DNA of 64,000 nt from an uncultured Dehalococcoidales bacterium (GCA_964505425.1 CAZDHX010000005.1:3726-67725), one strand, 5' to 3'. Counted from the first letter of the stretch, positions 15,007-58,687 are shown. Notes: generated by a model from the sequence alone, not told the origin. Program-made: numbers and translations.

Positions 15007-16462
15007 GTAATTCTAGGGGAATCACGCCTTGAATCTCTACTCTCTCAGTGCTGGCATAAACTTTGATGTCTAGCGCATCCAGAGCCAGCTTTATAATCTC
15101 CGGCGTGCTATCTTGTAGGTTCTTCAATACTCGGTCATAAAGCTGACCTAACCTAATTTTGGCCTCCGCAAGGTTCGCAATATTGTCCCTAGTATTGAGA
15201 AAGTCATTCAGTTTGGCTTCATCTTCATGGCGCAGGCGTTTGAGATTATTCAAGCGGTCTAAGACTTCGTCCTTTCCAAACTCTCCCAACTCTAGAGCTT
15301 GAAGTAAATTGGTTCGACGTTGCTCATAGTTCCGCAAGTTCTTTTCTAGTTCCTTAATCTCAGCCTCTATTGCATCCAAGTTTCCAATGTCGCTTGCTTC
15401 GGCAAGTTGACTCAGTATGATTTCAGGGTTCGCTAATACCGTTTTAGTCTTACTCCAGACTATTTCTTCAAGTTCTCCAGCTCGTACGTACCGGGCTTGG
15501 CATTTCTTACTGGTATTCTCATGGGGTCTGGCACTACTGCACTGGTAATAACGGTATTTTTTATTCAGACAGTGTCCAACAAGTGGCTTTCCGCAAATCG
15601 CACAGTAGGCATGACCTGTAAGCAGGTATTCATGTTTTGGCCGTCCCATTCTTACCCTCGGCCTATTGAGCTGTTCATTGGCGGCTTGGAATATATCTTC
15701 GCTTACTATAGCTGGGGTCACGTTCGGCAATAGGGTATTCTTGAAGTAGGTATTACCGATATAGCCGGAATTGCGGACAATTCGCCTGATAGTGAGGCTA
15801 TGCCATAATTTACGCTTGCTTTCATCGTTTTTGGTGGCTTTGGTGTGCACTCCGCTCTGGTTCAGTCTACGTGCTATTGATACCAAGCTTTCCCCGATTG
15901 CTACCCGGTTGAAAATCTCTCGTACTATAACGGCTTCAACCTGGTTTACCTCACGCCTTTTTGTCTCTTTATTCCAGTCATAACCGTACATGCCGACACC
16001 GGTACCCTGGGGCATTATGCCGCCATTCAGCTTTGCACGTTTCCCTCGCATGGTGCGTTCTCGTATTTTTTCCGCTTCCAGCTTTGAGGCAAAGCCCCGA
16101 ATGTAACTAATCAACTTGCCAAGCTCTGAACTATCTACCGTCTCAGTAACAGCCTCAAGTCTGACGCTGTGCTTTTCAAGTTCCTGAGTAAGTATGACGC
16201 CGTGAGTAGGGTCACGTGATAGCCGATCCAAGCAGTAAACCACTACAATGTCAATATCCCCGATTCGTATCAATTCCCGTAGCTCGTTTAGCTTGGGACG
16301 TTCAAGTGTTAGCCCTGAGTATGCCTCAGAAAAGCGGTAGGCTACGTTATAGCCCTTATCTTGGCAATATGCAAGGCAAGCCTCAAGCTGTGTGTGTAGA
16401 CTAGTTCCTTCCTGTTCTTGGTCTTCGGTGCTTACTCTACAATAGGTAGCTGCGGTTTTCAT
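14981..16462 (-). CDS. Large serine recombinase
   Basis: YCRVSTEDQ catalytic-Ser motif, a resolvase N-domain, a recombinase domain, a Zn-ribbon (CAICGKPLVGH...YYQC) and a C-terminal coiled coil. The start is taken at ATG 16462 (ATGA overlap with the upstream small ORF, GGGGG SD) rather than the track start 16483. Confidence 0.9.
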   Translation of the reverse strand: MKTAATYCRVSTEDQEQEGTSLHTQLEACLAYCQDKGYNVAYRFSEAYSGLTLERPKLNELRELIRIGDIDIVVVYCLDRLSRDPTHGVILTQELEKHSVRLEAVTETVDSSELGKLISYIRGFASKLEAEKIRERTMRGKRAKLNGGIMPQGTGVGMYGYDWNKETKRREVNQVEAVIVREIFNRVAIGESLVSIARRLNQSGVHTKATKNDESKRKLWHSLTIRRIVRNSGYIGNTYFKNTLLPNVTPAIVSEDIFQAANEQLNRPRVRMGRPKHEYLLTGHAYCAICGKPLVGHCLNKKYRYYQCSSARPHENTSKKCQARYVRAGELEEIVWSKTKTVLANPEIILSQLAEASDIGNLDAIEAEIKELEKNLRNYEQRRTNLLQALELGEFGKDEVLDRLNNLKRLRHEDEAKLNDFLNTRDNIANLAEAKIRLGQLYDRVLKNLQDSTPEIIKLALDALDIKVYASTERVEIQGVIPLELPTTAQTWA

Positions 16463-16608
16463 TTCTTCTTTACCCCCTTCCACTTTGGCTTATTCCAGTA
16501 GGGAGACCGGCACTTAGGACAGGTCTTAGGTTCTTTTGGCTGGCGCGGTACCCAAATATGCCCGCAACGTAGGCATTTAAGTATCGGCAGTTCAAAGCTC
16601 TTGTTCAT
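16459..16608 (-). CDS. Small zinc-ribbon protein, translationally coupled to the recombinase
   Basis: MNKSFELPILKCLRCGHIWVPRQPKEPKTCPKCRSPYWNKP has two CxxC pairs. Its stop overlaps the recombinase ATG. The track start at 16644 is probably too far upstream because it overlaps the promoter. Confidence 0.55.
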   Translation of the reverse strand: MNKSFELPILKCLRCGHIWVPRQPKEPKTCPKCRSPYWNKPKWKGVKKK

Positions 16609-29175: not shown

Positions 29176-30240
29176 GTGGAAGTAAACCAAATACCTGAGA
29201 TTGGCAAAATCTCGCCGGCAATCTTCAGCGAGCTGATATTTCCCCGCCTGGGGGCTAAGAGTGAAAAAATCCTGGTCGGGCCGCAGCACGGGGTGGACGT
29301 GGGGATAGTGGAAATCGGGGACAAGGCGGTCTCGTTTACCTGCGACCCGGTGTTTATCGTCCCTGAGTACGGCTGGGAGAGGGCTGCCTGGTTTGCCATT
29401 CATATTCTTGCCTCTGACGCCGTGACCTGCGGGCTTAAGCCCAAGTTTCTGTCCATAGACCTGAACCTGTCCATGGAGATGACCAAGGACGAGCTGCAGA
29501 TAGTCTGGGATACCATGCACCGGGAGTGCGAGCGGCTGGGAATCTCGGTCATCTGCGGGCACACCGCCAGGTACGAGAACTGCCATTACCCCATGGTGGG
29601 CGGGGCTACCATAATCGGGGTTGGGGAGAAAGAGGAATATGTCACCCCCAGAATGGCAGGAGCTGGCGATAGGATAATTATTACCAAGGGGCCGGCTATT
29701 GAGGCGACAGGCATCTTGGCTACCATGTTTCCCCAGCTTATTGAGAAGGAGTTCGGGCTTGACTTTAGCCAGAGGGCACAGCAGATATTCTATAAGATGT
29801 CAGTGGTGGAGGACGCCATGACAGCGGTAGGCGTTGGCATTAGAGACAATGGCGTTACCGCCATGCATGATGCCACCGAGTGCGGGATATGGGGCGGACT
29901 TTATGAACTGGCTCAGTCGGCTGGTCTGGGGGTGAGGATAGAAAAGGAGCAGATTGTAGCTGAGGACTGTGTTGAAGAAATATGCCGCTTTTTTGGCATT
30001 GACCCCTACGCCTCAATAAGCGAAGGGACGCTAATCATTGCCTGCCGTGAGCATAAAGCCAGGGAAGTGGTGGAGGCTTTGTCTCAAAAGGGTATTAAAT
30101 CTTCTATTGTCGGAGAGCTGACTAGACTAGATAAAGGAATGGTTCTAGTAGAAGGAGGAAACGAAAAGAAACTTGAGCACCCTATCGTTGACCCCTTCTG
30201 GAAGGCTTTCTACCATGCCCTTGAGAAATACAAATCATGA
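29176..30240 (+). CDS. PurM-superfamily (AIR synthase-related / HypE-SelD-ThiL-like) ATP-dependent enzyme
   Basis: GVDVGIVEIGDKAVSFTCDP, HILASDAVTCG and VICGHTA, the typical PurM-like N and C domains. It lacks the SelD N-terminal Cys/Sec loop and the HypE C-terminal PRIC. GTG start with an AGGAGGG SD. Confidence 0.7.
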   Translation: MEVNQIPEIGKISPAIFSELIFPRLGAKSEKILVGPQHGVDVGIVEIGDKAVSFTCDPVFIVPEYGWERAAWFAIHILASDAVTCGLKPKFLSIDLNLSMEMTKDELQIVWDTMHRECERLGISVICGHTARYENCHYPMVGGATIIGVGEKEEYVTPRMAGAGDRIIITKGPAIEATGILATMFPQLIEKEFGLDFSQRAQQIFYKMSVVEDAMTAVGVGIRDNGVTAMHDATECGIWGGLYELAQSAGLGVRIEKEQIVAEDCVEEICRFFGIDPYASISEGTLIIACREHKAREVVEALSQKGIKSSIVGELTRLDKGMVLVEGGNEKKLEHPIVDPFWKAFYHALEKYKS

Positions 30241-30279
30241 GAGTAAACGGTGAACTAAATATATGCTCAGAGGAGATAG

Positions 30280-31281
30280 ATGATAGCTCAGTTCTTCATC
30301 ACATTTAAGGATTATCTCATTGCAGTATTGCCCTTCCTGGTAACAGGGTTTTTCCTGAGTGGTTTAATCTATGAGTTTGTCCCCACTAGCTGGGTTGAGA
30401 GACACCTTGGCGGGAAGGGGATAAAGCCCCTGATCTACTCCACCCTTATCGGGACAGCCCTCCCTATCTGCTGCCTAGGCTCTCTCCCGGTGGCGGTGAG
30501 CCTCCACCAGAAAGGGGCGAGATTGGGTTCAGTTTTGGCCTTTCTGGTGGCAACACCAGCTACCTCTATTACTGCTCTCCTGGTGTGCTATGCTCTGCTC
30601 GGCATAAAGTTCACCGCCTTCATATTCTTTGCCGTGATAGCGATGGGATTGAGCATGGGTTTTATCGGGAATTTGCTCAGGGTCAAGCCGAAAGCCTCCC
30701 TTTCCCGGGATAAACAGCTAGCTACTGACCCCGTATGCGGAATGAGTGTAGAGACAGGCAAGGCAGTGAAAACAGAATACCGAGGGGATGCTTATTATTT
30801 CTGCTGTTCCCACTGCCAGCAGGCGTTTGAAAGTAGACCCCAAAAATATCTGGGGATTTATCCCAGGAACATTGCTCACCGGATGAAGCATGTTTTCAAA
30901 TACGCCTTCGTGGATATGGTTAAGGAGATGGGCCCCGAGCTGCTTTTAGGCTTGGCTTTAGCAGCACTGGTGGCCACCATTACCCCGGTCGGGGAGTTCA
31001 TAGGAGATTATTTTAGCGGGGGTTTAGGCTATCTATTCAGCCTTGTCTTCGGTCTCATGATGTATATCTGCTCTACAGCTAGCGTTCCTCTAGTTCACGC
31101 CTTCCTATCCCAGGGAATGAATATTGGGGCGGGAATGGTATTGCTAATAGTCGGCCCAGTTACTAGCTGGGGGACAATTCTAGTCTTACGCAAGGAGTTT
31201 GGTGGCAGGACATTGCTTATCTATTTGGCAATCATCTGTGTAATGGCTCTGGCTCTGGGCTATTTCTTTTCCCTGATATAA
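30280..31281 (+). CDS. DUF318/ArsP-like permease with an embedded YHS (TRASH-type) metal-binding domain
   Basis: Multi-TM protein with LPICCLGSLP and ICSTASVPL permease motifs. The central loop is DPVCGMSVETGKAVKTEYRGDAYYFCCSHCQQAF (YHS). Confidence 0.75.
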   Translation: MIAQFFITFKDYLIAVLPFLVTGFFLSGLIYEFVPTSWVERHLGGKGIKPLIYSTLIGTALPICCLGSLPVAVSLHQKGARLGSVLAFLVATPATSITALLVCYALLGIKFTAFIFFAVIAMGLSMGFIGNLLRVKPKASLSRDKQLATDPVCGMSVETGKAVKTEYRGDAYYFCCSHCQQAFESRPQKYLGIYPRNIAHRMKHVFKYAFVDMVKEMGPELLLGLALAALVATITPVGEFIGDYFSGGLGYLFSLVFGLMMYICSTASVPLVHAFLSQGMNIGAGMVLLIVGPVTSWGTILVLRKEFGGRTLLIYLAIICVMALALGYFFSLI

Positions 31282-31297
31282 AGAATAAAGAGATGAC

Positions 31298-31732
31298 ATG
31301 GCGAAAATAATTGCCGTCTGTAAGAGTGAGAAAAAGGGCACTAAAAAGGAAGTTGTGACGGAAGGATTTCTTCGGGAGGACTTTGGTCTTATTGGTGATG
31401 CCCATGCCGATTGCTGCACGCATCGTCAGGTAAGCCTGCTGGCGATTGAGAGTATTAATAAAATGCGAAGTCTAGGCTTCGATATAGGCCCAGGGGATTT
31501 TGCCGAGAATATTACCTGTGAAGGGGTAGAGCTGGTCTCATTGCCGGTGGGGACGCGGCTCTTAATAGGAAAAGAAGTTATCTTAGAGGTTACTCAGATC
31601 GGAAAGGAGTGCCATAGCAGGTGTGCTATCTATCGTCAGATAGGCAAATGCATCATGCCCAGAGAAGGGGTATTCGCCAAGGTAATCGGCGGTGGATTGG
31701 TTAGGGCTGGAAACACGATAAAAATAAAATGA
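31298..31732 (+). CDS. MOSC-domain protein
   Basis: 144 aa. HRQVSLL...GDFAENITCEG...G is typical of the small MOSC beta-barrel family. Confidence 0.75.
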   Translation: MAKIIAVCKSEKKGTKKEVVTEGFLREDFGLIGDAHADCCTHRQVSLLAIESINKMRSLGFDIGPGDFAENITCEGVELVSLPVGTRLLIGKEVILEVTQIGKECHSRCAIYRQIGKCIMPREGVFAKVIGGGLVRAGNTIKIK

Positions 31733-31742
31733 TAGAGATAAA

Positions 31743-32753
31743 ATGGCAAAAAGATTACTTGCTTCATTTCTGATCGGGGCTTTAGTAATTATTACCTTAA
31801 TGGTAGGTGGCTGTTATTATAAAAACGCTGAAAAACCGGTTGGCATAGCTGTTGAATTCAATAATCATGCTGCCTGTGCTTATATAGCCGACGCTAAGGG
31901 CTGGTTCGAAGAGGAAGGGCTGGAGCTAGAGCCTGTCTTCCAGATTTACGAGTCAGGGGCGGCTGTTGCCGCCGCTTTAGCCCGGGGAGATATTCAAATT
32001 GGCTATATGGGGTTGACAGGAGCCATTATGACCTATGCTCAAGGAGTACCAATAAAGGTGATAGCCGGAATTCATAAGTACGGTTATGGTCTCGTTGCAA
32101 AACCAGAAATAAAAGAGATAGAAGATTTGCACGGCAAGACCATTGGCTGTCTAAGGGAGGGTACTGTGACCGACCTCCTGCTTAACCTTATGATAGACAA
32201 ATATCAGCTTAAGAATGTAACCATTCTCCGCATGAATCCCACCGAAGAGGTCATTGCTTTAATTACTGGGAGACTAGATGCTGCATTCCTTCCTGAACAA
32301 CACGCCACCATGGCTGAACTCCAAGGATTTCCTATGCTCATTAACAGCCAAGACTTATGGTCTGGGATGCAGGGGGACGTTTTGGTAGTTAGGGCTGAGG
32401 TTATAGAGGACAATCCTGAGCGGGTAGAGCGATTAATGGGAGTTACCCAACAGGCAACAGCTTGGGTAAACGAGCACCCCGCTGAGACAGCGGAAATTAT
32501 GGCTGGGCAATTACAAGCTGCTGGGGAGAGTATCTTTCCCATCGAGGAAGCAGGGCTTGCCGCAAGCCTAGAAATCACCCCCCAAGTTATATCCCGCTCC
32601 ATGGATAGGATTGAATATACCATGAGTATTGACCCAAAGGTAGTTCAAGATACGATAGACTATATGGTGGAGTTAGGCTATATAAAAGAGGGGATCAAGG
32701 CTGCAGACATCCTAGATTTAGCCTATCTCCGGGAGGGAGGGCAAGATGGTTAA
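31743..32753 (+). CDS. NMT1/THI5-like (SsuA/TauA-type) substrate-binding lipoprotein, orphan
   Basis: Signal/lipobox-like N-terminus (LMVGGCYY) and a periplasmic-binding fold pattern (GDIQIGYMG...). No ABC permease or ATPase gene is adjacent. Confidence 0.7.
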   Translation: MAKRLLASFLIGALVIITLMVGGCYYKNAEKPVGIAVEFNNHAACAYIADAKGWFEEEGLELEPVFQIYESGAAVAAALARGDIQIGYMGLTGAIMTYAQGVPIKVIAGIHKYGYGLVAKPEIKEIEDLHGKTIGCLREGTVTDLLLNLMIDKYQLKNVTILRMNPTEEVIALITGRLDAAFLPEQHATMAELQGFPMLINSQDLWSGMQGDVLVVRAEVIEDNPERVERLMGVTQQATAWVNEHPAETAEIMAGQLQAAGESIFPIEEAGLAASLEITPQVISRSMDRIEYTMSIDPKVVQDTIDYMVELGYIKEGIKAADILDLAYLREGGQDG

Positions 32754-32877
32754 AAATGAAGTAGAGAGATTTCCTGTATTACGGCTTACCAGGGAAGGCA
32801 CAGCCACCGGTGCTCTCCAAAGTGCCCTGATTACCTGTCCGTAGCTAGAGCCGAAAGAATAAAAAGGGAGGGAGAGT

Positions 32878-33174
32878 ATGCCTATCAAGTGGAGCACCGT
32901 CAGGGTGAGCGAGACTGTGGATGAGATTGAGGAGCTTATGAACTCCATCAGACCGACCTTGTGGCGGATGCGTGAGAAGGCGGGAGAGCTGAGACGGAAA
33001 CCCAACCTACCGGGGTATATTGACCAGCCCACTGTCACGATGACCTCTAAGGTGGATAACTTCAACACCTATATAAAGGGCTACATTGAGCGTATCCGCA
33101 ACCTCATACCCAAAGAGACACTGGAGGAGGAGCGCAAGGCTTTGGAGTATGGCAGACAGCAATCGCTAATCTAA
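32878..33174 (+). CDS. Hypothetical protein
   Basis: 98-aa track ORF with a GGGAGGGAG SD, followed by a strong terminator. No family recognised. Confidence 0.45.
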   Translation: MPIKWSTVRVSETVDEIEELMNSIRPTLWRMREKAGELRRKPNLPGYIDQPTVTMTSKVDNFNTYIKGYIERIRNLIPKETLEEERKALEYGRQQSLI

Positions 33175-33238
33175 AAACTGCCGGGAATTGAAAGGGTAAC
33201 TATGCCCAAAATTAGCTTCTAGTGGTTAACCAAGTATA

Positions 33239-33273
33239 AGAGGGTCGAGACGAAGTCTCGACCCTCTCTTTTT
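33239..33273 (+). terminator. Rho-independent terminator
   Basis: A perfect 13-bp stem AGAGGGTCGAGAC-GAA-GTCTCGACCCTCT followed by CTTTTT. Confidence 0.75.
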
Positions 33274-33362
33274 AACCTCTGTGGCTGCACAAAGCAAGCT
33301 TTCGTGCGGTAAGACGCCCTTGATGATATAATCAAATTGCTGATAATTCAAAGCGGTAACAA

Positions 33363-34031
33363 ATGAATTATAAATTAAGCCCATCAGACCTTACGTTCCT
33401 TTATGAAGGTTGCAAGCGGTGTTTCTACCTAAAGATGGTCCACAACATAGCTCAACCTTCAATTCCTTTACCCTCTATCTTTGCCCAAATCGCTGGGCTC
33501 TTAAAGAACCATTATGATGGCAAACAAACGAGCGAATTACACGTTGACATTCCTCCGGGAACGGTGAGTCACGGTGAGAAGAGCGTCCGGTCTCAGATTA
33601 TCCAATTACCAAAGCATAATGATACCTGCTATATAAGTGGGAGATTTGACATTGTTGTTAGTTTTGAAGACGGAACCTATGGCGTCATAGACTTCAAGAC
33701 CAGTAATCCAAATACGGAATCCGCCAATCTTTACAGCCGGCAGCTACACGCCTATGCGTATGCCTTGGAACACCCCGACCCTGGTGCACTTGCTTTGTAC
33801 CCTGTTACAAAGCTAGGATTGTTGTATTTCTACCCCTCTAGAGTTGATCAGCAAAGTATTGAGCAGCTTTCCTACGAAGCTGATATTACTTGGGTTGAAA
33901 TCAAAAAGGACGAGCCAAGTTTCCTAAACTTCATAGATGAGTTATTGGATGTACTTGAATCGCCCCTAGCGCTGGAACATTCCCCTGATTGCCCATGGTG
34001 CAAGTATACCCAGAAATTGAGTAGCATTTAG
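33363..34031 (+). CDS. PD-(D/E)XK nuclease, Cas4/RecB-like, with terminal Cys pairs
   Basis: GRFDIV ... GVIDFKTS (D / DxK), QLHAYAYAL (QxxxY), N-terminal CKRC and C-terminal CPWC. Confidence 0.7.
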   Translation: MNYKLSPSDLTFLYEGCKRCFYLKMVHNIAQPSIPLPSIFAQIAGLLKNHYDGKQTSELHVDIPPGTVSHGEKSVRSQIIQLPKHNDTCYISGRFDIVVSFEDGTYGVIDFKTSNPNTESANLYSRQLHAYAYALEHPDPGALALYPVTKLGLLYFYPSRVDQQSIEQLSYEADITWVEIKKDEPSFLNFIDELLDVLESPLALEHSPDCPWCKYTQKLSSI

Positions 34032-34097
34032 TGGAGCCTCGGCTTAACAAAATGAGTTTTTGTGCAACAGAACAGAAGATCGCAGAAACGTAGTAAT

Positions 34098-34883
34098 TCA
34101 CAGCCAACGTCGCAAGTGCTTGAAAAAGGTTATCAGCGCAGAGGTCAAAGACAACCAAAGATGGAGCCGAACTTTATTCAGAGGACTCAAAGGCAGAGGG
34201 TCGCCTAAAATGAATGTCTCCCTATTACTGTAGAAGCGGTCGACAAATTCCTTTCTTAAGACTGGTCTTTGCTGAGCAGGATACAGCTTATTGGTTACTT
34301 GGCTCTCATATTGCCAAATAGCAGCCTTCTTGGCTTTCAACACATCTGAAATATCAACCACAAGTAATTTCGGTGCAACGTTGGGGGTGGGAATTGCCCA
34401 AACAAAATATTGGTAAAGCAACGTCTTTCTTCCCAATTTACGAAGCGCACTACGCACAATAAGGTGAGTTGCCACATGGTCAGGGTGTCTGTCCCCAATA
34501 TATGGAAGAAAGACTTCCGAGGGCTCGAATTGCTCCAAAATTTTTATTACGTCCGACATAGCTTCTCGTCTGTGCTTATACAGTGCGCCATCCTCTATGC
34601 CTAGAAAGAGGAGCCTACCTTTGTCAAGGCCTAACTTATGCATAGCTCGTTCTTCCTCAAGTTTCCTTTGCTTTGCCAGTTCGTCCGGAGTGGGATTTTG
34701 CTTGATTCCAAATGTCAGCAGGTGAGAATTTCTGCCATCGGTCATGCATACGACAAAAACTTCTTTCCCGGCTTTCGTTCTTAGCGCTATCGTTCCTCCA
34801 CAACCAAATGTCGCATCATCCTTATGTGGGGCAAAAACCACGGAACGCGCCACTGTACTAAGTTCGACGTCCGAGTAGCTCAA
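34098..34883 (-). CDS. PIG-L/LmbE-family N-deacetylase
   Basis: VFAPHKDDATFGCGG (PHxDD-type motif) and GDRHPDHVATH (HPDH). TTG start with a GAGGTGAAG SD. Confidence 0.8.
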   Translation of the reverse strand: MSYSDVELSTVARSVVFAPHKDDATFGCGGTIALRTKAGKEVFVVCMTDGRNSHLLTFGIKQNPTPDELAKQRKLEEERAMHKLGLDKGRLLFLGIEDGALYKHRREAMSDVIKILEQFEPSEVFLPYIGDRHPDHVATHLIVRSALRKLGRKTLLYQYFVWAIPTPNVAPKLLVVDISDVLKAKKAAIWQYESQVTNKLYPAQQRPVLRKEFVDRFYSNRETFILGDPLPLSPLNKVRLHLWLSLTSALITFFKHLRRWL

Positions 34884-34999
34884 CTCTTTACTTCACCTCA
34901 CAAAGCTGTCTTCAAATTGCACTACGCAACGCATTAGACTCTGGGCCAAGGTGCAACTCTAACAACTTCAAAATCGCTCGGCAATATGGGTTCATGTTC

Positions 35000-35788
35000 T
35001 CAATGAGGCGGAAAGATGAAGCGAACTACCGCTTGAAAATTCTTGCCCAAGCATTGAGCTTTGCTGACTTCTTTGTACAGTTCGATCAAGGGTTCTGAGT
35101 TAGTCGTCACCCAGCTTACTCCGACCGTACCTTCGCCGTGGCATCCTGAAAGAGCGACTGCAGTTTTTCCCGATCCGAACGGGCTTTCTGCTTTTGTGAT
35201 AATAGCTAGGTCCAAGGCCCAAGTGCCACTCTTACCCCCTGGGCTAGGCTTTTCACCTACCATCTGTTGAGATACCACGTCAAATACCACCCAGTTAACC
35301 CTTTCATAAGGATTTAGTCTTATCAGGTTTAGTCTGGCCAAATCTGGAACGACAGGCCCCTGCTCAGTGAACTCGGCAAAAATGAACCGCCCCTGTCTCA
35401 GCAAGGGCTCTACTGGCAGCAAGGGGCGCCATCCTCCCACAAACAATGGGTGCTTCCCAGTATCTAGTGCAATTGGGAGCTTGCGTAGCCTCGTGCGGAG
35501 CGTCTTGCGGAAAGCAGCTACTACGGGGTGCACAAAGGCGTTGCTCCATGCGAAGGTATCCATAGGGGACGGCGCCATCCCGTATCTAAATCCAATCACT
35601 GCTTGACTTAATTCTTTTCGGTCCAAGAATATTTCTCGGTTGTAGCCGTCTACGGCATCCCAATCTTTCTTTTTTGCCAGTGCGGTTCTTACTGCCTTAG
35701 CAACTGCGATAGTCCCACCAACTATCTCAACAACCGTGATTACACCGCTGGGCAATAGTTGCGCTGCCACAGCTACGGTTTCCCACAT
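35000..35788 (-). CDS. Hypothetical protein with N-terminal hydrophobic helix
   Basis: Track ORF trimmed to ATG 35788 (AGGAGGG SD 6 nt upstream): MWETVAVAAQLLPSGVITVVEIVGGTIAVAKAV... No family recognised. Confidence 0.55.
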   Translation of the reverse strand: MWETVAVAAQLLPSGVITVVEIVGGTIAVAKAVRTALAKKKDWDAVDGYNREIFLDRKELSQAVIGFRYGMAPSPMDTFAWSNAFVHPVVAAFRKTLRTRLRKLPIALDTGKHPLFVGGWRPLLPVEPLLRQGRFIFAEFTEQGPVVPDLARLNLIRLNPYERVNWVVFDVVSQQMVGEKPSPGGKSGTWALDLAIITKAESPFGSGKTAVALSGCHGEGTVGVSWVTTNSEPLIELYKEVSKAQCLGKNFQAVVRFIFPPH

Positions 35789-36290
35789 TTTTGTCCCTCC
35801 TGTACCCCCCAACCCTTTGTGTCCGCATAGGTCTACCCTACTTTTGTGCCTAGAAGCCTATCAGCTTATCCTACAGGGTGTGTCGCCTAAGACCCCCCGA
35901 GTACTCAACATTCTACGCCTTGACCGACTCCGTTTCAATCCTCTTTAACTAACGCTTCTCGCCGGAGCATATCTAATTCCCGTAATAGGATTGATCCCAA
36001 TCTTGCTCCCCGTCAACTCGCAGCGACCTAGAAAGCGGCAAATCAGTCCCCTCTGGGGGCGGGCAAGCCCAGCTACTGCAAACAGAGTCATCGTAGCTCT
36101 CATCAGCTTAACCCGCAACCATCTTGGAACTGATTATATCAGATGCCAACAGCCAATCGCGAAACCGGTCACGTCGTCTAGAACCCAAGCAGCATGCCAT
36201 AGGGAATGAGACAGCATAGCTCAACAATAGTCAGTTTTGTGCAACGATAATTCAGCACATCGCATGGAGCGCTAGCTTATTACGTGCAGC

Positions 36291-39200
36291 CTAGTCTTGG
36301 CCTTCTACTACAGCTATTTCGGCCTCAGTTAATCCGTACAACTTGTAGACTATCTGGTCGATGAGCTTGTCGGTCAGTTCAATGCGCTCCAGCAGGGGCC
36401 TTAGCTTGGTTACGGATGCCTGAAACTCACCCCGGATGTTCTCCTGTGGCCCCCGGCGAGTCACATCAATGTCTTTGGCTGCCTGGATTGCCCGTCTGTT
36501 TTGCTCCAGAGCGCCAAAGAAGCCCTCCCACCCCACGTCTGTTTTCCAGTATTCCCTCACCTTAGTCTTATTTTTAAGATCCTCAACATTAACGGCAAGA
36601 TAACTCTCCAACCAAGAAAGAAATCCCTTTATCTCCACCTGCTTCTCCTTGTGAAGCCTGGTCATCTCTTCTGCTAGGTAAGCGAGCAGGTCATGGATAA
36701 CGTCTGACTGCTCCTTCTCTGTCTCTGGGGAGCTATCGGGCTTGTGGGGTAGACGCTGGCTGACGAAGGACATGAGTTGGCCCCAATCTTCACTTTTAAC
36801 GTATTCCTGATAAAGCCTTTGTTCGTCTTCCATGAGCTGCTTGCGCTCTGGCTTTGGTGTTGAAAATTTTATCTGACGAATAGGGAGTACCTCTAGTTGT
36901 GGAGCTTGGAATTGGAAATATCCGCCGCCCATTCGCAGGGCACCAAAATACTCGCAATAAATCATGTTCATGAGGGATGAGTTCAGTACTGCACCTAGGT
37001 ATCCTAGGCTATATCTACCACCATAAGCGCAGTTTGTATTCGCTGAAGCAAACTCTCTGGCAAAGTCAGTGAATCCTTCGAGACGCAGTGCCATTTTAGC
37101 AAAAATAATCTTAGGCTGTTTGTATAGTTCACGACGAGACTCCGAGACTGCACTGTTAGCAGTATCAAGATAAGGTTCTAAGTAGCGTGAACCTCTGTGG
37201 TCAAGAGGCTCGACGCCCCAGAGTGAGCAATATCTATCAATAAGGCCAGTGTTAATAAATTTTTGTTTGTGCGGTCCCGGCTTTCCGCTGATAGCAGGTG
37301 TAAACTCGTCTGATTCAGCTGCTGTGCTAGTTGCCTGAACTGTTGCTATCGCTGAAAGTGGTTGAGATTTTGCACCAACTTTCACTACCAATTCGAAGTT
37401 AGATGATAAAAGAAATCCCCACAGCAAGTCGGGTAAGGCTGTAAGATTCGCGCTCTCATGGACGGCAACCTTGCCAATCATCTTTTCGTTACTCTCAGCA
37501 GTAAAAATCTTCACCGAGTAATCACCTGCTTTTCCGCTCCCACGCTTAAAGACGGAGACAACAGGATAAACGAAGGGATCTTCAAAGACCTTTACCTGCG
37601 AACAATCATAGAGACTCACAAGTTCATGTTGCGAAACAATCATATTCCGAAATGCAACAGCATATGGAGCTGATAAGAACTTATTTGGAGTAATTAAAGC
37701 AGTCATCCTTTCCCTGGCAACCAGTGAGAGGCCTAGTTCGAAGAATAAAAGATAAATGTCGTAAGCACCAGCGGCACTGGTAAACTTAGTTTTCCAAAAA
37801 GGTTTCTCATATGGCGACAAAATTCGATTCAATTCTATTGCATTCACATACGGCGGATTCCCTACTACGGCACTAAAGCCTGGATTCGGCAGCCGCTGTC
37901 CGTTTCGGTCAAAGAACACTTCAGGGAACTCCAGCTCCCACTGAAAAAATTGTCGCTCCTCACCTATCTTCATACTACTAGCAAACCAGGGTTGCTTTTC
38001 TATCTTTGCCCACTCTGGTTCTGGAGCACGGATGTTGGTAAGGAGATTGTCGTAATCTTGAGACTCCACCTCATTCCCAAAGTAGGTGCTGGTCCAGATG
38101 TGTGCCACTTCCTTATAGCGTTTCAAAATATCACGGGCGATGCCATAAAGTTTTTCCTTCTCCTGGATATCCTGAATTTTGTCAGAGGATATGGCGGCGA
38201 TGCGGAAGTAATTGTCTACCGCCGTAGCGACATTCTGGACAAACCAAGCTTCCCACATCGTGGTGGGCTGGACTTCCGGCAGTTTCTTTCCCAAGCCCTT
38301 CATCTTAAGCTCTTTACCCGGCAAAGCACCCAGCTCTGAAATCCTGGCTCCAATCAGAGAGTTGCCACAGCGCAAATGGTGGTCTAAGAAGCTTAGTGGT
38401 TTGTCAACTGAGACAGTGGAAAGCCACAAGGACAGCTTGGCAAGATCGACCACTAAGGGATTGAGATCAACGCCGTAAATGCAGCGCTCTACTACCTCGC
38501 GGCGTGCCCATCGTATCTCGTCCTCCTCCATTTCCCTGGGGTCTTCACCTAAAGCCTCGACAAGGGCTCGTGCCAGAAAGTCCGTCGCCTCCACCAAGAA
38601 ATGCCCTGACCCCATTGCCGGGTCAAGGACTCTCATGGAAAGGATGGTATCAATCAAATTCCCATCGGAAGCCTTCGCCTCTTCAATAAGAGGCCCGACA
38701 GTATTACTGACTATGTATTTGACGATGTAGTCGGGGGTGTAATAGGAGCCGGTAGCTTTACGCTCTCCCTTGTCAGTTTCCAGATAAACAGAGCCAGCAC
38801 GATAGGTCTTAAGTGCCTTGCGATCACCCAGTTCCGTAATGGGGATGAACTTCTCCCGCTTAGCATCTTTTATTACCGCAATATCCTTAGCGGCGTAGTG
38901 AGGCTGGTGCTCAAGAAGCCCCTCGTATATGGAGCCCAGCTCCCTTACGCCCAGATCTCTATAGCTTACGAAGCCACGTCCAGTGCGTCCGGCAGCCCGT
39001 GCCCGCGCTAGTTGGTCGATAGCTGCTGCCAGGTAGGAGTCACCTATCTTCCATGCAGCAAGCTTCTGGTGTTCTTTCTGGTCATCGAAGAGCCTGCCGT
39101 TATAAGGTGGAATATGCAGGAAATCGTCGCCATTGTTGATAAGGTTGAACAGCTCCCTAAGCCGTGACCAATACATAGTAGTGGTTGGGCTAAGCTGGGA

Positions 39201-39890
39201 CTCGAATGGCTCCTTCGCAGCTATCTCGTGTGTTAAAGCCCGCAGGCTATAGGTGCCCCAGTAAGTAGGGTTAGTCACCGGCAGGAATTCTCTGGCCTCA
39301 GCATAGAGAGTAAAGAGCAAGCGACGCTCGTAATGGGCCTTACCCTTGACACACTCCAGCTCTTGATTTGGAGCTAACATTTCCGCATTTCCGGTCCGCT
39401 TATAAGATACGGTAAATTTACCGTTATCTGCCACGTTACTAATTGGAGCGCCACGCATCGGCATGATCCTAACGTTAGCATCAGCTATCTGAACATTCCC
39501 ATCTTTGATTTCGGGCTTAGGCATTTTGCGGAATTCTGAATCAATGGAGTAAATTAACGGGTCTTCCTTTATCCATTTAGCATAGGCACCCGAAACAGAG
39601 CCATGCCAATCTTCTGGAAGAGGAATAGAAGGATAGACTTGGCCCTGGCCATTAACATGAGCGATTACGAAACAATTTATCGTCTCCGAAGGAATAATAC
39701 ACCCGGAAAATCCCATACCTCCTTTGGCAGGTTTCCACCTTGTTATTTCTTTTGCATTTGGGTCTAGCCATAGTCTGTCTTCCCCCGACCAAGCTTGTTG
39801 TGCTCTTTTTAGATCGCGGATATAGGCTTCGTCAAAGGGGCTTTTCCAGAAATACGAAGTCCAGACTTGTACCGGAAGACGCATCATCAA
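36291..39890 (-). CDS. Type IIG / PglX-like gamma-class N6-adenine DNA methyltransferase (1199 aa) with an unrecognised ~185-aa N-terminal domain
   Basis: IPPYNGRLFD, TGSYYTPDYIV, DPAMGSGHFL (motif I), VVGNPPYV (motif IV) and the C-terminal IVYKLYGLTEAEIAVVE tail, typical of Eco57I/MmeI/PglX-type enzymes. No obvious PD-(D/E)XK motif at the N-terminus. Confidence 0.85.
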   Translation of the reverse strand: MMMRLPVQVWTSYFWKSPFDEAYIRDLKRAQQAWSGEDRLWLDPNAKEITRWKPAKGGMGFSGCIIPSETINCFVIAHVNGQGQVYPSIPLPEDWHGSVSGAYAKWIKEDPLIYSIDSEFRKMPKPEIKDGNVQIADANVRIMPMRGAPISNVADNGKFTVSYKRTGNAEMLAPNQELECVKGKAHYERRLLFTLYAEAREFLPVTNPTYWGTYSLRALTHEIAAKEPFESQLSPTTTMYWSRLRELFNLINNGDDFLHIPPYNGRLFDDQKEHQKLAAWKIGDSYLAAAIDQLARARAAGRTGRGFVSYRDLGVRELGSIYEGLLEHQPHYAAKDIAVIKDAKREKFIPITELGDRKALKTYRAGSVYLETDKGERKATGSYYTPDYIVKYIVSNTVGPLIEEAKASDGNLIDTILSMRVLDPAMGSGHFLVEATDFLARALVEALGEDPREMEEDEIRWARREVVERCIYGVDLNPLVVDLAKLSLWLSTVSVDKPLSFLDHHLRCGNSLIGARISELGALPGKELKMKGLGKKLPEVQPTTMWEAWFVQNVATAVDNYFRIAAISSDKIQDIQEKEKLYGIARDILKRYKEVAHIWTSTYFGNEVESQDYDNLLTNIRAPEPEWAKIEKQPWFASSMKIGEERQFFQWELEFPEVFFDRNGQRLPNPGFSAVVGNPPYVNAIELNRILSPYEKPFWKTKFTSAAGAYDIYLLFFELGLSLVARERMTALITPNKFLSAPYAVAFRNMIVSQHELVSLYDCSQVKVFEDPFVYPVVSVFKRGSGKAGDYSVKIFTAESNEKMIGKVAVHESANLTALPDLLWGFLLSSNFELVVKVGAKSQPLSAIATVQATSTAAESDEFTPAISGKPGPHKQKFINTGLIDRYCSLWGVEPLDHRGSRYLEPYLDTANSAVSESRRELYKQPKIIFAKMALRLEGFTDFAREFASANTNCAYGGRYSLGYLGAVLNSSLMNMIYCEYFGALRMGGGYFQFQAPQLEVLPIRQIKFSTPKPERKQLMEDEQRLYQEYVKSEDWGQLMSFVSQRLPHKPDSSPETEKEQSDVIHDLLAYLAEEMTRLHKEKQVEIKGFLSWLESYLAVNVEDLKNKTKVREYWKTDVGWEGFFGALEQNRRAIQAAKDIDVTRRGPQENIRGEFQASVTKLRPLLERIELTDKLIDQIVYKLYGLTEAEIAVVEGQD

Positions 39891-40021
39891 ACTCCTGTCA
39901 TACGAATTGTCATCGCAACTTCAAGCCTCTCATTTTAGTATAAGCTTATTATGTGGAAATAAAAAGATCCCGCTGCCGGGCAGAAGCCGCCGAGGAACCC
40001 CGAGGAAGCAGGATTCCAGGC

Positions 40022-40213
40022 ATGAACATGAGCAGCAATCAATTACCTCTTCCTAACAACGATCCGGCGCGGAAGAATGTTGACTATTCTGTTCCGCCAG
40101 AGCCAATATGTGACTCTGACGCCGATGCCGAACTGGCCCAGGCCGATATTGACCACCTGTGTCGGGTCTGGGCCGGGGTGGGACGGGCGATCCTTCTCAG
40201 GAGGAGCAGTTAA
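40022..40213 (+). CDS. Small acidic hypothetical protein directly upstream of the recombinase (possible accessory/directionality factor)
   Basis: Within track ORF 39953..40213, the stop TAA lies immediately 5' of the recombinase ATG (TAAGATG). No family recognised. Confidence 0.3.
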   Translation: MNMSSNQLPLPNNDPARKNVDYSVPPEPICDSDADAELAQADIDHLCRVWAGVGRAILLRRSS

Positions 40214-40214
40214 G

Positions 40215-41786
40215 ATGATTAGCAGAGAGAAGCCTACGATTGGCAAAGGTAACCGGACTGCGACCATCATCAGGGTATCGGACGAGAGCCAGGTGGAGGG
40301 ACACTCACTGGAAGCCCAACGGTTAGGAATTGAGCACTGGTGTCAGCAACGAGGATACGTTCTGTTCAAGGAATACACCGAGGCTGGGGTATCCGCCCAC
40401 ACCGACGAGATCGAGAAGCGGCCGGAACTCCTCCGGCTCCTCCAAGATGCGGAACAAGGGGAGTTCGACATCGTGGTAGTGCACACACTCGACCGATTGG
40501 CCCGGAAACTAAGCATTCAGATGCAAGCCCTATCGCGTTTAGCTAAGGCCGGCGTTGGTTTCGCGAGCGTGAACGACCCTTTTGACGCCACCACTCCTCA
40601 AGGCCGCCTGATGCTCAACCAAATGGGCTCTTACAACGAGTTCTTCTCCGAACTCTTGGGCATCCACGTCAGCAAGACCTTCCGATTCATGGCTGAGTCG
40701 GGGTTGACAGTCGGGCCGGTACCCTTCGGATATCGGCGCCAAGAAAAGCAGCTTCCGCCTGTGAAGGAGGAGCGGGAAGCGGAAGCTGTGAAAGAAGTAT
40801 TTCAACGTCGGGCGGGAAGTCAGTCCACAGGCGAAATCGCTGCCTGGCTCAATGCCCAGGGTTTTTGCACCAGAGAGGGCCATGCCTTCACAGCCCATGC
40901 GGTGAAAGATATCCTGAATAATCGCTATTACTGCGGGTATGTGAAGTACCACGGCGAAGAGTATCCCGGTAAGCACGCCGTCATCATCTCGGAAGACCTG
41001 TTCCAGCGTGTACAAGCCCGAAGGCAACGGCGGCAGCAGGTACGCTCGGTACACGGACCGAAGGGTTTACTCCAGGGGATCATAGCTTGCTGGCACTGCG
41101 GTAATCGGCTTCAGTCAGATCGCCACCGTCAGCTGGTACCCCTCTATCGGGAACGGCATGCTCACGAGTGTCCCACGAACAATTCGTCTATTGTGGCGGA
41201 GGTCATTGATAAGCAGATGGCAACGATTATCCATTCCCTGGGATTGCATCCGAAATGGAGGCAAAGGATGGCCGAGCTTGCCGCAGCAAACTATGACGGG
41301 CCAGACCCAAAAGCGCTAAAAGAGAAGCGCCGTCGCCTCGGCCGGGCTTACGCCGACGGGGCATTTACCGATGAGGAGTATCAAAGACGACTGGCGGAGA
41401 TCAATCATCATCTTGATCAGGCGTGCACCGTAACACCACCCGCTGTCGAAGCAGCTGTAGAACTCTTTACGAATATCCCCATGCTCTGGGCAGAGGCAAC
41501 TCCGGATGAGAGAAGACAGTTGGTGAACCCACTCGTCGAGCTGGTTTACGTAGATCTTGAGACAAAGCGCGTTGCCGCGTTCAAGCCGGCACCGGCATTC
41601 CGGGTGCTGTTTGGTACAGGGATAGAGGTGGCCCCAAACGCACCGGTGCTATTGCTACCCTCGGGAAGAGAAACCCGAGAGAATGTTGGAGATGGTGGAG
41701 ACGGGGGAGAGTTGAACTCCCCGTCCAAAGGAAGCTGCCCAGAATATACTACAAGCTTAGTCAGCTCTTTAATCTCACCCGGCTAG
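40215..41786 (+). CDS. Large serine recombinase whose 3' end overlaps ssrA
   Basis: IIRVSDESQ catalytic motif, FDIVVVHTLDRLAR, a recombinase domain and a Zn-ribbon (CWHCGNRL...HEC). The start is ATG 40215 (AGGAGGAG SD). The last 94 nt read antisense through the tmRNA 3' end. Confidence 0.9.
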   Translation: MISREKPTIGKGNRTATIIRVSDESQVEGHSLEAQRLGIEHWCQQRGYVLFKEYTEAGVSAHTDEIEKRPELLRLLQDAEQGEFDIVVVHTLDRLARKLSIQMQALSRLAKAGVGFASVNDPFDATTPQGRLMLNQMGSYNEFFSELLGIHVSKTFRFMAESGLTVGPVPFGYRRQEKQLPPVKEEREAEAVKEVFQRRAGSQSTGEIAAWLNAQGFCTREGHAFTAHAVKDILNNRYYCGYVKYHGEEYPGKHAVIISEDLFQRVQARRQRRQQVRSVHGPKGLLQGIIACWHCGNRLQSDRHRQLVPLYRERHAHECPTNNSSIVAEVIDKQMATIIHSLGLHPKWRQRMAELAAANYDGPDPKALKEKRRRLGRAYADGAFTDEEYQRRLAEINHHLDQACTVTPPAVEAAVELFTNIPMLWAEATPDERRQLVNPLVELVYVDLETKRVAAFKPAPAFRVLFGTGIEVAPNAPVLLLPSGRETRENVGDGGDGGELNSPSKGSCPEYTTSLVSSLISPG

Positions 41787-42046
41787 CCTCAACTGACCGA
41801 GTCTAGCCAGACCAGCCGATTCTTCTTTCACCACCCTCATCGGCGTTGGGGTGGTGGCACCTCAACTCTTCGGCACCCGGTCCCCGCCCGTTGAGGAGAG
41901 GCTTGGGTGGGCGCGCCGCCTATTTAATTAGGCTGCGTAAGCGAATTCAGGTTCGCCAGTTATTTTTACCACTTGTTTTATGAGGTTAGCGGCACCTCAG
42001 CCTGCAATCCTGTAGCCTACCTCCCCTGTCGAACCCACGCGTCCCC
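41693..42046 (-). ncRNA. ssrA: tmRNA (transfer-messenger RNA)
   Basis: Minus strand reads 5' GGGGACGCGTGGGTTCGACAGG ... GGACGGGGAGTTCAACTCTCCCCCGTCTCCACCA 3'. The acceptor stem pairs with a G3:U wobble (Ala identity), and there is a T-arm and CCA. The likely tag ORF at 41928-41957 is GGC GAA CCT GAA TTC GCT TAC GCA GCC TAA (GEPEFAYAA). Lies 16 nt downstream of smpB. Confidence 0.85.
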
Positions 42047-57149: not shown

Positions 57150-58058
57150 TTAAGGCTCGAACAACTTCGGAGACTTGAATTCCAGCAAAAAGTCTTTGAT
57201 TCGCCTCTCTGCCAGTTTTACATATTCCTGACTTATGTCATACCCAATATAGTGACGATTTGTCTTTATGGCTGCTATTGCCGCTTGCCCACTCCCTATA
57301 AAGGGGTCTAGAATCACTTCCTCAGCAAATGTATAAAGCTGGATTAATCTATAAGGTAGTTCTACGGGGAAAGGCGCCGGGTGACCTACCTTGCGTGCCG
57401 ACTCAGCAGAGAAAGTCCAAACGCTTTTAGTGAACTCCAAAAACTCCTCCTGTGATATGGTGTTCTGCCGTTTATGGACGTTTCTTCTGCTGAACATGCC
57501 CTTGGAAAAAATCAGAATATACTCATGAATATCCCTTAAGGTCGGATTGGCTGCACTCAGCCAGCTTCCCCAAGCCGTAGAAGGACTAGAACTAGAAGCC
57601 TTATTCCAGATAATTTCCCCTCTCATTAGAAAGCCCAACTCTAACATATCCTCCACAATAAAAGCATGGAGGGGAATATAAGGTTTTCTGCCTAAATTGG
57701 CAATATTTACACAAGCTCTCCCCCCAGGGACAAGAACTCTATAAACTTCTTTCCATACTCGCTTCAGAAATTCACGATATTGTTCCAGCGTCAGGTTCTC
57801 GTCATACTCTTTCCCCACATTATAAGGTGGTGAGGTAACCATCAGATGAACGCTATCGTCTGGGAGTTCCAGCATGTTCTCACTGGTTCTACAAAAGATT
57901 CTATCTAAAAATTGAGGTGGGACAGAAGCTTCAACATATTCAGCCCTTTGTTCTGCCGGCAAGCCTTCGTACAACTTGCTGGTATAAAAGGCGGTTGAGT
58001 CATGATTTATCCTCCCCGGGGAGCCAAAGGGACTTGTTTGTGTACCTCTTCTCCTCAT
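57150..58058 (-). CDS. Beta-class N4-cytosine/N6-adenine DNA methyltransferase (SPPY motif IV, so probably N4-C)
   Basis: Motif IV TSPPYNVGKEY precedes motif I DPFIGSGQAAIAA (beta permutation; N6_N4_Mtase type). The start is ATG 58058, in an ATGA overlap with the upstream ORF. Confidence 0.85.
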   Translation of the reverse strand: MRRRGTQTSPFGSPGRINHDSTAFYTSKLYEGLPAEQRAEYVEASVPPQFLDRIFCRTSENMLELPDDSVHLMVTSPPYNVGKEYDENLTLEQYREFLKRVWKEVYRVLVPGGRACVNIANLGRKPYIPLHAFIVEDMLELGFLMRGEIIWNKASSSSPSTAWGSWLSAANPTLRDIHEYILIFSKGMFSRRNVHKRQNTISQEEFLEFTKSVWTFSAESARKVGHPAPFPVELPYRLIQLYTFAEEVILDPFIGSGQAAIAAIKTNRHYIGYDISQEYVKLAERRIKDFLLEFKSPKLFEP

Positions 58059-58687
58059 TCCTCCCTCCAGTAGTCTACCCATCTCTGGTAAGGATGATAG
58101 TCTATCTCTGGCTTTTGCCAGCTTATTTCAATAACTTTAGCTTCCTTGCTTTGTATTAAGGACAACAGAGCTTCTTTTGTAATCTCAGCACCGCGAGGGT
58201 TGGTGCCTGGCTTGGGTAATTTGATATATCTTTCACTACCCATCTTCTCAAGCAAATGACGCTGTGTTTCCACTGGTATGAAATAAAGCCCACCCTTACC
58301 ACCCCAAAAAATCTGTACAAATATAATATCGCTTGAAGGATAATAACTTTCCTGAAATTCTTTTGCGTTTTGGGCATCAACTGTCCATACTAATTTAACC
58401 CCACCGAACCCTTTGCCAGTAATTGTTTTTATAGAAACAGGCTGCCCAAATAACTTAACATCTACCTCAGGCTCGGTGATAGGAATATCTGTCTGCACAT
58501 TGCTCTCGCCAAATTTGTAGATAAGCAAGGAGACTATAATGTTTTCACGAACAGAGCCTACTTGCATACCTATCTTTCCAGCCCTTGAGCACTCTAACTC
58601 GGCAATTCTAAAAAGTTGGGGTAAGCGCTTTTTAATTTTAAGTTTAAGTGCTTCATCCTCAAATAGTTCAACCAAGTGACTGCTCAT
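58055..58687 (-). CDS. Putative type II restriction endonuclease (partner of the adjacent methyltransferase)
   Basis: 210 aa, AT-rich and translationally coupled to the MTase. The TEPEVDVKL segment could be a (D/E)xK motif. The family was not identified by eye. Confidence 0.5.
   Translation of the reverse strand: MSSHLVELFEDEALKLKIKKRLPQLFRIAELECSRAGKIGMQVGSVRENIIVSLLIYKFGESNVQTDIPITEPEVDVKLFGQPVSIKTITGKGFGGVKLVWTVDAQNAKEFQESYYPSSDIIFVQIFWGGKGGLYFIPVETQRHLLEKMGSERYIKLPKPGTNPRGAEITKEALLSLIQSKEAKVIEISWQKPEIDYHPYQRWVDYWREE

Follow-up and report, generated by a model that had tools for sequence, protein, structure and literature searches.

Is the unassigned N-terminal domain of a large adenine methyltransferase a new functional module, or is it a piece of some other protein? 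The question is raised by a gene at positions 36291..39890 (minus strand) of a 64,000-nucleotide (nt) stretch of DNA from an uncultured Dehalococcoidales bacterium (GCA_964505425.1, CAZDHX010000005.1:3726-67725), here called the window. A first-pass annotation had placed an open reading frame (ORF) at these coordinates and interpreted it as a solitary methyltransferase with a novel N-terminal effector or reader domain or, alternatively, as part of an undescribed system with its neighbours. We find that the gene is a chimera. Very probably, it is a one-off product that arose in frame, through one deletion or illegitimate-recombination event, within a serine-recombinase island by the transfer-messenger RNA (tmRNA) gene, and it consists of the 5' end of a mobile-element gene, the family of which is here called X, and the nuclease-less body of a type IIG restriction-modification (R-M) gene.

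Two unrelated halves in one open reading frame

The ORF is indeed present on the minus strand and, counted from a TTG, has 1199 codons with no frameshifts or internal stops. An AGGAG ribosome-binding site (RBS) lies 5' of two ATG codons, the second of which (39884) lines up with the start codon of related X genes and is the probable start; the resulting protein of 1197 amino acids (aa) equals database protein P0001, which is identical to the window protein.

The search for methyltransferase homologues yielded 7783 proteins at E<=1e-10, the best 120 of which were listed. The listed homologues (P0001 apart) span at most ~84-86% of the chimera, none of them extending over its first ~190 aa, and the full-length ones are mostly 1260-1340 aa long. 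According to BLASTP, residues 189-1197 of the chimera correspond to residues 281-1282 of the closest relative, P0002 (1283 aa), with 75% aa identity, and no homology to P0002 is seen upstream of residue 189 of the chimera. Similarly, DNA identity to the P0002 gene (locus L001) begins at window position 39324 (L001 4717) and ends at 36270, 21 nt past the stop codon.

The remaining segment, aa 1-188, contains no Pfam domains. An exhaustive phmmer search with this segment against 1.84 billion representative proteins gave 107 matches, mostly proteins of 370-415 aa in which residues 1-~187 are aligned. The top match, P0121 (391 aa), is 52% identical over residues 1-187 (E=2.9e-59), and the alignment is colinear, ending at ...GKAHYER. 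Beyond ...YER, proteins of family X run for ~200 residues more, comprising the WLGYFWWEFYQD motif and a zinc-ribbon-like basic tail with CxxC...C...C (Cys4); this C-terminal half is absent from the chimera and from the rest of the window. Conserved N-terminal residues of the family include Q6, W8, D24, R27, A28, W32, E35, W104, and P124, and the chimera deviates at seven of 32 conserved columns, compared to eight of 32 for P0121 (25/32 vs 24/32 kept). Judging by this homology, aa 1-188 of the chimera correspond to the N-terminal half of a ~390-aa mobile-element protein, and are no novel effector or reader domain.

The leader and the first codons of the chimeric gene are also related to those of X genes, being 83% identical at the DNA level to loci L003-L006, and the ~37-nt leader itself (window 39888-39924 vs L003:9962-10000) is almost identical, though the proteins are 52% identical. 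This leader holds a direct ATGACA...ATGACA repeat immediately 5' of the AGGAG RBS, and the leader of X genes might function as a conserved operator or as an RNA element. The window repeats the layout of X loci as well: the recombinase gene at 40077-41786 is divergent from the chimeric gene, as is the adjoining large serine recombinase gene from the P0121 gene in L003, L005, and L006. More distant X genes are located at the edges of mobile-element-like regions, without an adjoining serine recombinase. X loci were observed at L003:10001-11176, L008:6001-7158, L009:6001-7122, L013:5374-6516, and L015:6001-7041, in addition to window 39325-39924; a genome scan with alignment A5 gave three loci; and the hosts of the family are Dehalococcoidia, Ktedonobacterales, and Deltaproteobacteria metagenome-assembled genomes (MAGs). 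Family X has no Pfam, PHROG, or PADLOC match. The AlphaFold model of P0121 (predicted local distance difference test, pLDDT, 93.6; predicted template-modelling score, pTM, 0.92) is one compact unit, with a drop of pLDDT around residues 141-170, and has no significant fold match in PDB or among viral predicted structures (BFVD). Proteins of the family could serve recombinases as accessory or directionality factors.

The junction

The reading frame crosses from X ...Y-E-R (GAG CGT) into type IIG CGC TTG CTC (R-L-L) with microhomology of at most 1 nt; where the chimera switches, the X homologue reads ...YER and then HTIEG. On the X side, the breakpoint at residue 188 falls within the strand 183-190 of the P0121 model, and on the type IIG side, the breakpoint at parent residue 281 falls within the helix 265-290 of the P0002 model. 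Since both breakpoints ignore domain boundaries, an accidental join is favoured over modular domain shuffling. There are no substantial inverted repeats near 39324 and no repeat at the breakpoint. Programmed inversion, i.e., a shufflon exchanging 5' cassettes, was considered and rejected, as the inverted repeats are lacking and the window contains no alternative nuclease cassette.

The lost nuclease region and the helicase partner

The first 280 residues of the type IIG relatives, which have no tblastn match in the 64-kb window, contain the invariant P90-D91, the near-invariant D122-A123, the invariant K124, and TNGRxWRLY. The PADLOC type IIG profile PDLC03613 matches P0002 and another relative, P0008, from position 9, and the chimera only from position 277. 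In the AlphaFold model of P0002 residues 1-300 (pLDDT 83, pTM 0.80), an alpha-beta-beta-beta-alpha-beta core carries the PD and DAK motifs on its strands and is followed by long helices (221-257 and 265-290), of which the chimera keeps only residue 281 onward. For the P0002 N-terminus, Foldseek ranks BpuSI and a nuclease fragment of a type I HsdR highest in PDB, ahead of RecU, Cas4, and lambda exonuclease (E ~0.1, non-significant). The Pfam MmeI_N match in the relatives is weak (E=0.051, below threshold), a weak MmeI_hel match in P0002 starts at aa 279, and a profile search of PDB with the relatives detected only the methyltransferase core and no nuclease match. The motifs, the profile match, and the non-significant fold matches support the prediction that the 280-aa region is a PD-(D/E)XK nuclease. 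The lack of a nuclease domain in the chimera, claimed in the first-pass annotation, thus holds, given that PDLC03613 aligns from 277 only and aa 1-188 match nothing in Pfam.

The genes of P0002 and P0008 are located directly 3' of a gene encoding a ~1210-aa PLD-SNF2 helicase (four contigs: L001, L002, L011, L012), which matches the BrxHII, HmaA, and DrmD profiles. No such helicase is found anywhere in the 64-kb window. The helicase (~1210 aa) and the nuclease-methyltransferase-target-recognition domain protein (~1275 aa, best PADLOC match DrmMI) form a compact two-gene operon (L001:242-7729, L002:238-7725, L011:5331-12825, L012:3-6909), and the neighbourhood in L011 has no DrmA/B, DUF1998, PglZ, or DUF499 gene. 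Two multi-gene systems centred on DUF499 and related to bacteriophage exclusion (BREX), namely BR and MANTIS, were rejected as the parent system, as the relatives form a two-gene operon.

Several shorter homologues were considered as other nuclease-less cases, but P0028, P0039, P0043, P0087, and P0088 are cut C-terminally instead. P0024 (1204 aa, Bipolaricaulota) begins slightly before the helical connector, and P0079 (1194 aa) begins ...ALAEAKAW; these proteins, starting inside or after the nuclease region, could be natural truncations or artefacts of gene calling or contig edges.

State of the methyltransferase body

The first-pass annotation had described a full gamma-class methyltransferase with target-recognition and C-terminal helical regions, and this is borne out by Pfam and by the 75% identity to P0002. 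All the motifs listed there are found, namely YNGRLFD, TGSYYTP, DPAMGSGHFL (aa 422-431), NPPY (aa 677-680), and the C-terminal IVYKLYGLTEAEIAVVE. The Pfam matches are Eco57I (aa 469-768, 1.3e-31), N6_Mtase (aa 375-495, 2.8e-08), MmeI_Mtase, and TaqI_C (aa 905-1003, E=5.4e-07, 30.3 bits vs the gathering cut-off of 26.5), and PDB relatives of the core are CamA, BseCI, PglX/BrxX, TaqI, BpuSI, and DrdV. Out of 169 conserved columns (agreement in >=90% of 49 homologues), the chimera deviates at two (A479V, H649Q), compared to 0-17 in intact homologues, and both DPAMGSGHF and NPPY sit at family-invariant columns. As far as conservation can indicate, the chimera seems to have kept its methyltransferase, target-recognition, and C-terminal parts intact. 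Nuclease catalysis is dispensable for type IIG methylation, as the nuclease-dead E76A mutant of BpuSI still methylates DNA (PMC3185434); in the chimera, however, some of the helical connector is gone too.

Origin of the chimera and alternative explanations

In the favoured explanation, X supplied the leader, the RBS, the start codon, and codons 1-188, and the type IIG-like gene, minus its first 280 codons, supplied codons 189-1198; the gene for the PLD-SNF2 helicase, found 5' of intact relatives, is missing as well. The chimeric protein would be translated from the X expression signals and would be unable to cleave DNA, and any activity it has would be that of a solitary site-specific N6-adenine methyltransferase, with the X-derived 188 aa most likely a passenger fragment and no functional module. 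Because the restriction half is deleted, the chimera is a remnant of an R-M fusion; pseudogenisation, which the earlier annotation had regarded as fatal to its reading, has thus occurred in part, but the ORF itself is open. Of that reading, the solitary methyltransferase stands and the novel domain does not, the latter being a truncated X segment (residues 1-187) cut in mid-strand, in a fusion that is a singleton.

Retained methylation activity and an inactive remnant have roughly even odds, judging by the features of the gene. The case that the gene is a pseudogene in effect, with no methyltransferase activity and an ORF open only through recency, falls somewhat short of an even chance in our estimate: the chimera has lost the nuclease domain, some of the connector, and the helicase partner, its N-terminal fragment, being cut within a strand, may misfold, and the fusion is a singleton, but no frameshift or stop has arisen over 3.6 kb, 167 of 169 conserved positions are kept, including motifs I and IV, and the expression signals are intact. 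As the data fit both, the inactive remnant and the active solitary methylase are not separable. The same intactness has been weighed as a sign that the fusion is a selected functional architecture, with the X N-terminal domain as a reader, targeting, or regulatory module, e.g., protecting or controlling the island. The join is in frame and inherits the conserved leader and RBS, the X fragment has degenerated no further than P0121 (7/32 vs 8/32), the methyltransferase body is intact, and, given the pLDDT dip at 141-170, the first ~140 residues might be a fully retained sub-domain. Still, we consider this improbable, since among the 107 X-family matches and the best 120 of 7783 methyltransferase homologues the fusion is carried only by P0001, one database protein present in the assembly of the window and one other; a scan of one genome per species (185,579 species) revealed no relative of the chimera; X is predicted as a single compact unit (pTM 0.92); and the fragment ends within a beta-strand, its partner being cut within a helix. 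A newborn functional protein, in which the X N-terminal domain recruits or regulates the adenine methyltransferase for the island, expressed from the promoter facing the serine recombinase gene, appears similarly improbable; if true, it might let the island protect itself from restriction during transfer or control its excision epigenetically.

It is very improbable that the junction arose in assembly, by the misjoining of two unrelated metagenome contigs. The source assembly does appear metagenome-derived, records of the protein are limited to NCBI and Logan, and MAGs are the source of its relatives; but the Logan assembly of SRR14802574 (L007) is 100% identical over 7434 nt across the junction, so that two assemblies agree base by base over 7.4 kb, no repeat at the breakpoint could have misled an assembler, the junction is in frame, and one island continues on either side of it, through the recombinase in one direction and through the PIG-L and Cas4-like genes in the other. 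Equally improbable is a methyltransferase acting in an undescribed defence system with the adjacent 270-aa protein, PIG-L deacetylase, and Cas4-like nuclease, as the first-pass annotation had suggested. These genes are clustered within a low-GC patch, and the Cas4-like protein is a PD-(D/E)XK nuclease; but none of the three neighbours has homologues in the fetched loci around the type IIG relatives (L001, L002, L010-L012) or X genes, the match to the relative's locus stops 21 nt past the stop codon, the Cas4-like gene runs in the opposite direction, and none of the three has a defence-system-specific PADLOC match, the Cas4-like protein having only weak generic Cas4 ones.

Several points weigh against the deletion origin of the chimera and its proposed role. 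The ancestral layout, with X, the helicase, and the type IIG gene on one element, is seen in no contig, and the single-deletion scenario is therefore an inferred one. The identical Logan contig may come from the same reads as the window assembly, and hence may not be an independent confirmation. The nuclease assignment of the relatives' N-terminal region is not conclusive. The loss of ~60 connector residues and the cut in the helix could destabilise the enzyme, and its expression and methylation are predicted from sequence alone. Finally, an uninterrupted 3.6-kb ORF with both halves well preserved fits a recent event, but equally selection on the fusion: with no frameshifts or stops and with conserved columns retained, either the event is recent or the product is maintained, and the sequence is compatible with both.

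The example calls for caution, since even a large, clean ORF may prove chimeric when its N-terminal domain is unassigned; before a domain is called novel, it should be routine to check where the coverage by homologues stops and to search exhaustively with the orphan segment alone. It also illustrates one route to disarm a single-chain R-M enzyme, the nuclease and the helicase partner being deleted and the methyltransferase half taking the promoter and the start codon of a neighbouring mobile-element gene. If the remnant methylates, it would add an N6-methyladenine (m6A) motif to the methylome, which annotation pipelines would wrongly assign to an active restriction system.

Genomic island and neighbouring genes

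The features of the window are summarized in Table 1. The GC content is 0.44-0.53 from ~30000 to 40000, compared to ~0.54-0.57 on either side. The large serine recombinase next to the chimeric gene marks the mobility module of the island. The last 94 nt of its ORF (41693-41786) overlap the 3' end of the complete tmRNA gene (ssrA), with smpB next, and the island has probably integrated at ssrA. Its left border was not located, as neither a duplicated ssrA 3' end nor a convincing repeat resembling an attachment (att) site was found in the window. A second recombinase ORF, 14981-16483 (minus strand), overlaps the end of dnaN (13894-15006) by 26 nt (14981-15006), and the recombinase ORF in L003 overlaps a ChlI/ComM-like gene by 44 nt (L003:8068-8111). 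The three recombinase ORFs ending in the 3' ends of convergent core genes suggest that integration sites lie within the ends of genes and that the sequence encoding the recombinase C-terminus spans the att junction.

Table 1. Parts of the chimeric gene and other features of the window, with the supporting evidence.
Feature	Position	Strand	Evidence
X-derived segment: leader (~37 nt, with AGGAG RBS), start codon, codons 1-188	39325..39924	-	phmmer, colinear alignment, leader DNA identity
Fusion junction, codons R188/R189 (CGT, CGC)	39321..39326	-	BLASTP, DNA alignment, blastn
Rest of helical connector and N-terminal part of methyltransferase module, aa 189-370, including YNGRLFD	38778..39323	-	Alignment to P0002 from aa 281
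Gamma-class N6-adenine methyltransferase catalytic domain, aa 375-768	37584..38765	-	Pfam N6_Mtase and Eco57I, invariant residues, PDB relatives
Motif I, DPAMGSGHF	38598-38624	-	Family-invariant columns
Motif IV, NPPY	37848-37859	-	Family-invariant columns
Target-recognition domain core, TaqI_C-like, aa 905-1003	36879..37175	-	Pfam TaqI_C
C-terminal helical region, aa 1010-1198, and stop codon	36291..36860	-	BLASTP and DNA alignment to the P0002 gene
Large serine recombinase, divergent from the chimeric gene	40077..41786	+	Pfam Resolvase and Recombinase, PHROG integrase 1.4e-93, NCBIfam CcrB/XisF-like
tmRNA gene (ssrA)	41693..42046	-	ARAGORN; Rfam RF00023, 163.9 bits, full length
Cas4-like PD-(D/E)XK protein, 222 aa, C-terminal CPWC	33363-34031	+	Pfam; weak generic PADLOC Cas4 matches
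PIG-L/BshB-like deacetylase	34098-34883	-	Below NCBIfam equivalog cut-offs
270-aa protein	35000-35812	-	No Pfam, NCBIfam, PHROGs, or PADLOC match
N6_N4 methyltransferase of a separate type II R-M pair	57150-58082	-	Adjoins the ThaI-like endonuclease gene
ThaI-family restriction endonuclease	58055-58687	-	Pfam, E=2.3e-88

The PIG-L and 270-aa genes are flanked by an imperfect 27-nt direct repeat with 74% identity (34042-34068, GCTTAACAAAATGAGTTTTTGTGCAAC; 36219-36245, GCTCAACAATAGTCAGTTTTGTGCAAC); one copy lies just beyond the end of the type IIG homology, and the whole repeat is possibly due to chance. The 59 other ORFs of the window were scanned with PADLOC, and the best 25 of 93 matched families were listed, to about E=1e-16. 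No component of BREX or of DISARM (the restriction-modification-associated defence island system), namely PglZ, BrxC, BrxL, DrmA, DrmB, DrmC, and DrmD, is among the matches listed for these ORFs, in agreement with the absence of such partners noted earlier. Strong DndA and SspA matches in the window coincide with class-V aminotransferase domains, and these proteins are probably cysteine desulfurases. The only R-M nuclease in the window is the ThaI-like restriction endonuclease, which has its own adjoining methyltransferase; this apparently complete pair (57150-58687) lies between core genes in the IF3/ThrRS region.

Comparison with known systems

The chimera shares with type IIG enzymes (BpuSI, MmeI, Eco57I, DrdV; for the architecture of BpuSI, see PMC3185434) motifs I and IV of the gamma-class methyltransferases, the Eco57I signature, a TaqI_C-like target-recognition domain, and an upstream helical region, and its closest homologues (up to 75% identity) have the complete type IIG layout, i.e., nuclease, helical region, methyltransferase, and target-recognition domain. 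Unlike in type IIG enzymes, an unrelated fragment takes the place of the PD-(D/E)XK region and the start of the connector (together 280 aa of the parent). Thus, the chimera lacks the defining nuclease domain of the class and is not a member of it.

The best PADLOC match of the chimera is DrmMI (E=3e-91), yet it covers only profile positions 537-935 of 1347, and type IIG profiles match as well, all of these alignments beginning no earlier than the helical region. A likeness to DISARM is also seen in the relatives P0002 and P0008, the SNF2 helicase of which matches DrmD and carries a PLD domain like DrmC. DISARM is defined by the core genes drmA, drmB (DUF1998), and drmC (bioRxiv 10.1101/2021.12.28.474362). 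Unlike class 1 DISARM, there is no DrmA, DrmB, or separate DrmC among the matches listed for the window or beside the L011 relative, and the window also has no helicase. Similarly, the methyltransferase core of the chimera is related to that of BREX PglX/BrxX (PDB 8c45, 9ewz, 8zek), and the overall size is similar, but the best NCBIfam model, BREX_1_MTaseX, scores 78.6 bits vs the cut-off of 500, and PglZ, BrxC, and BrxL are not among the matches listed. Hence, by scores and partner genes, the chimera belongs neither to PglX nor to DrmMI.

With family X (P0121), the chimera shares the colinear residues 1-188, a leader and RBS near-identical to those in L003, and the same divergent recombinase neighbour; unlike family X, it lacks the entire C-terminal half (WLGYFWWEFYQD, Cys4 tail). 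Loss of R with retention of M is a viable route of R-M decay. Like orphan methyltransferases derived from R-M systems, the chimera consists of a methyltransferase and a target-recognition domain, with no cognate nuclease in the chain or in a conserved neighbour, and, unlike Dam and CcrM, which are conserved families with established roles, it is a singleton with a foreign N-terminal fragment. As far as can be judged from its sequence, the chimera fits the category of solitary methyltransferases derived from R-M systems.

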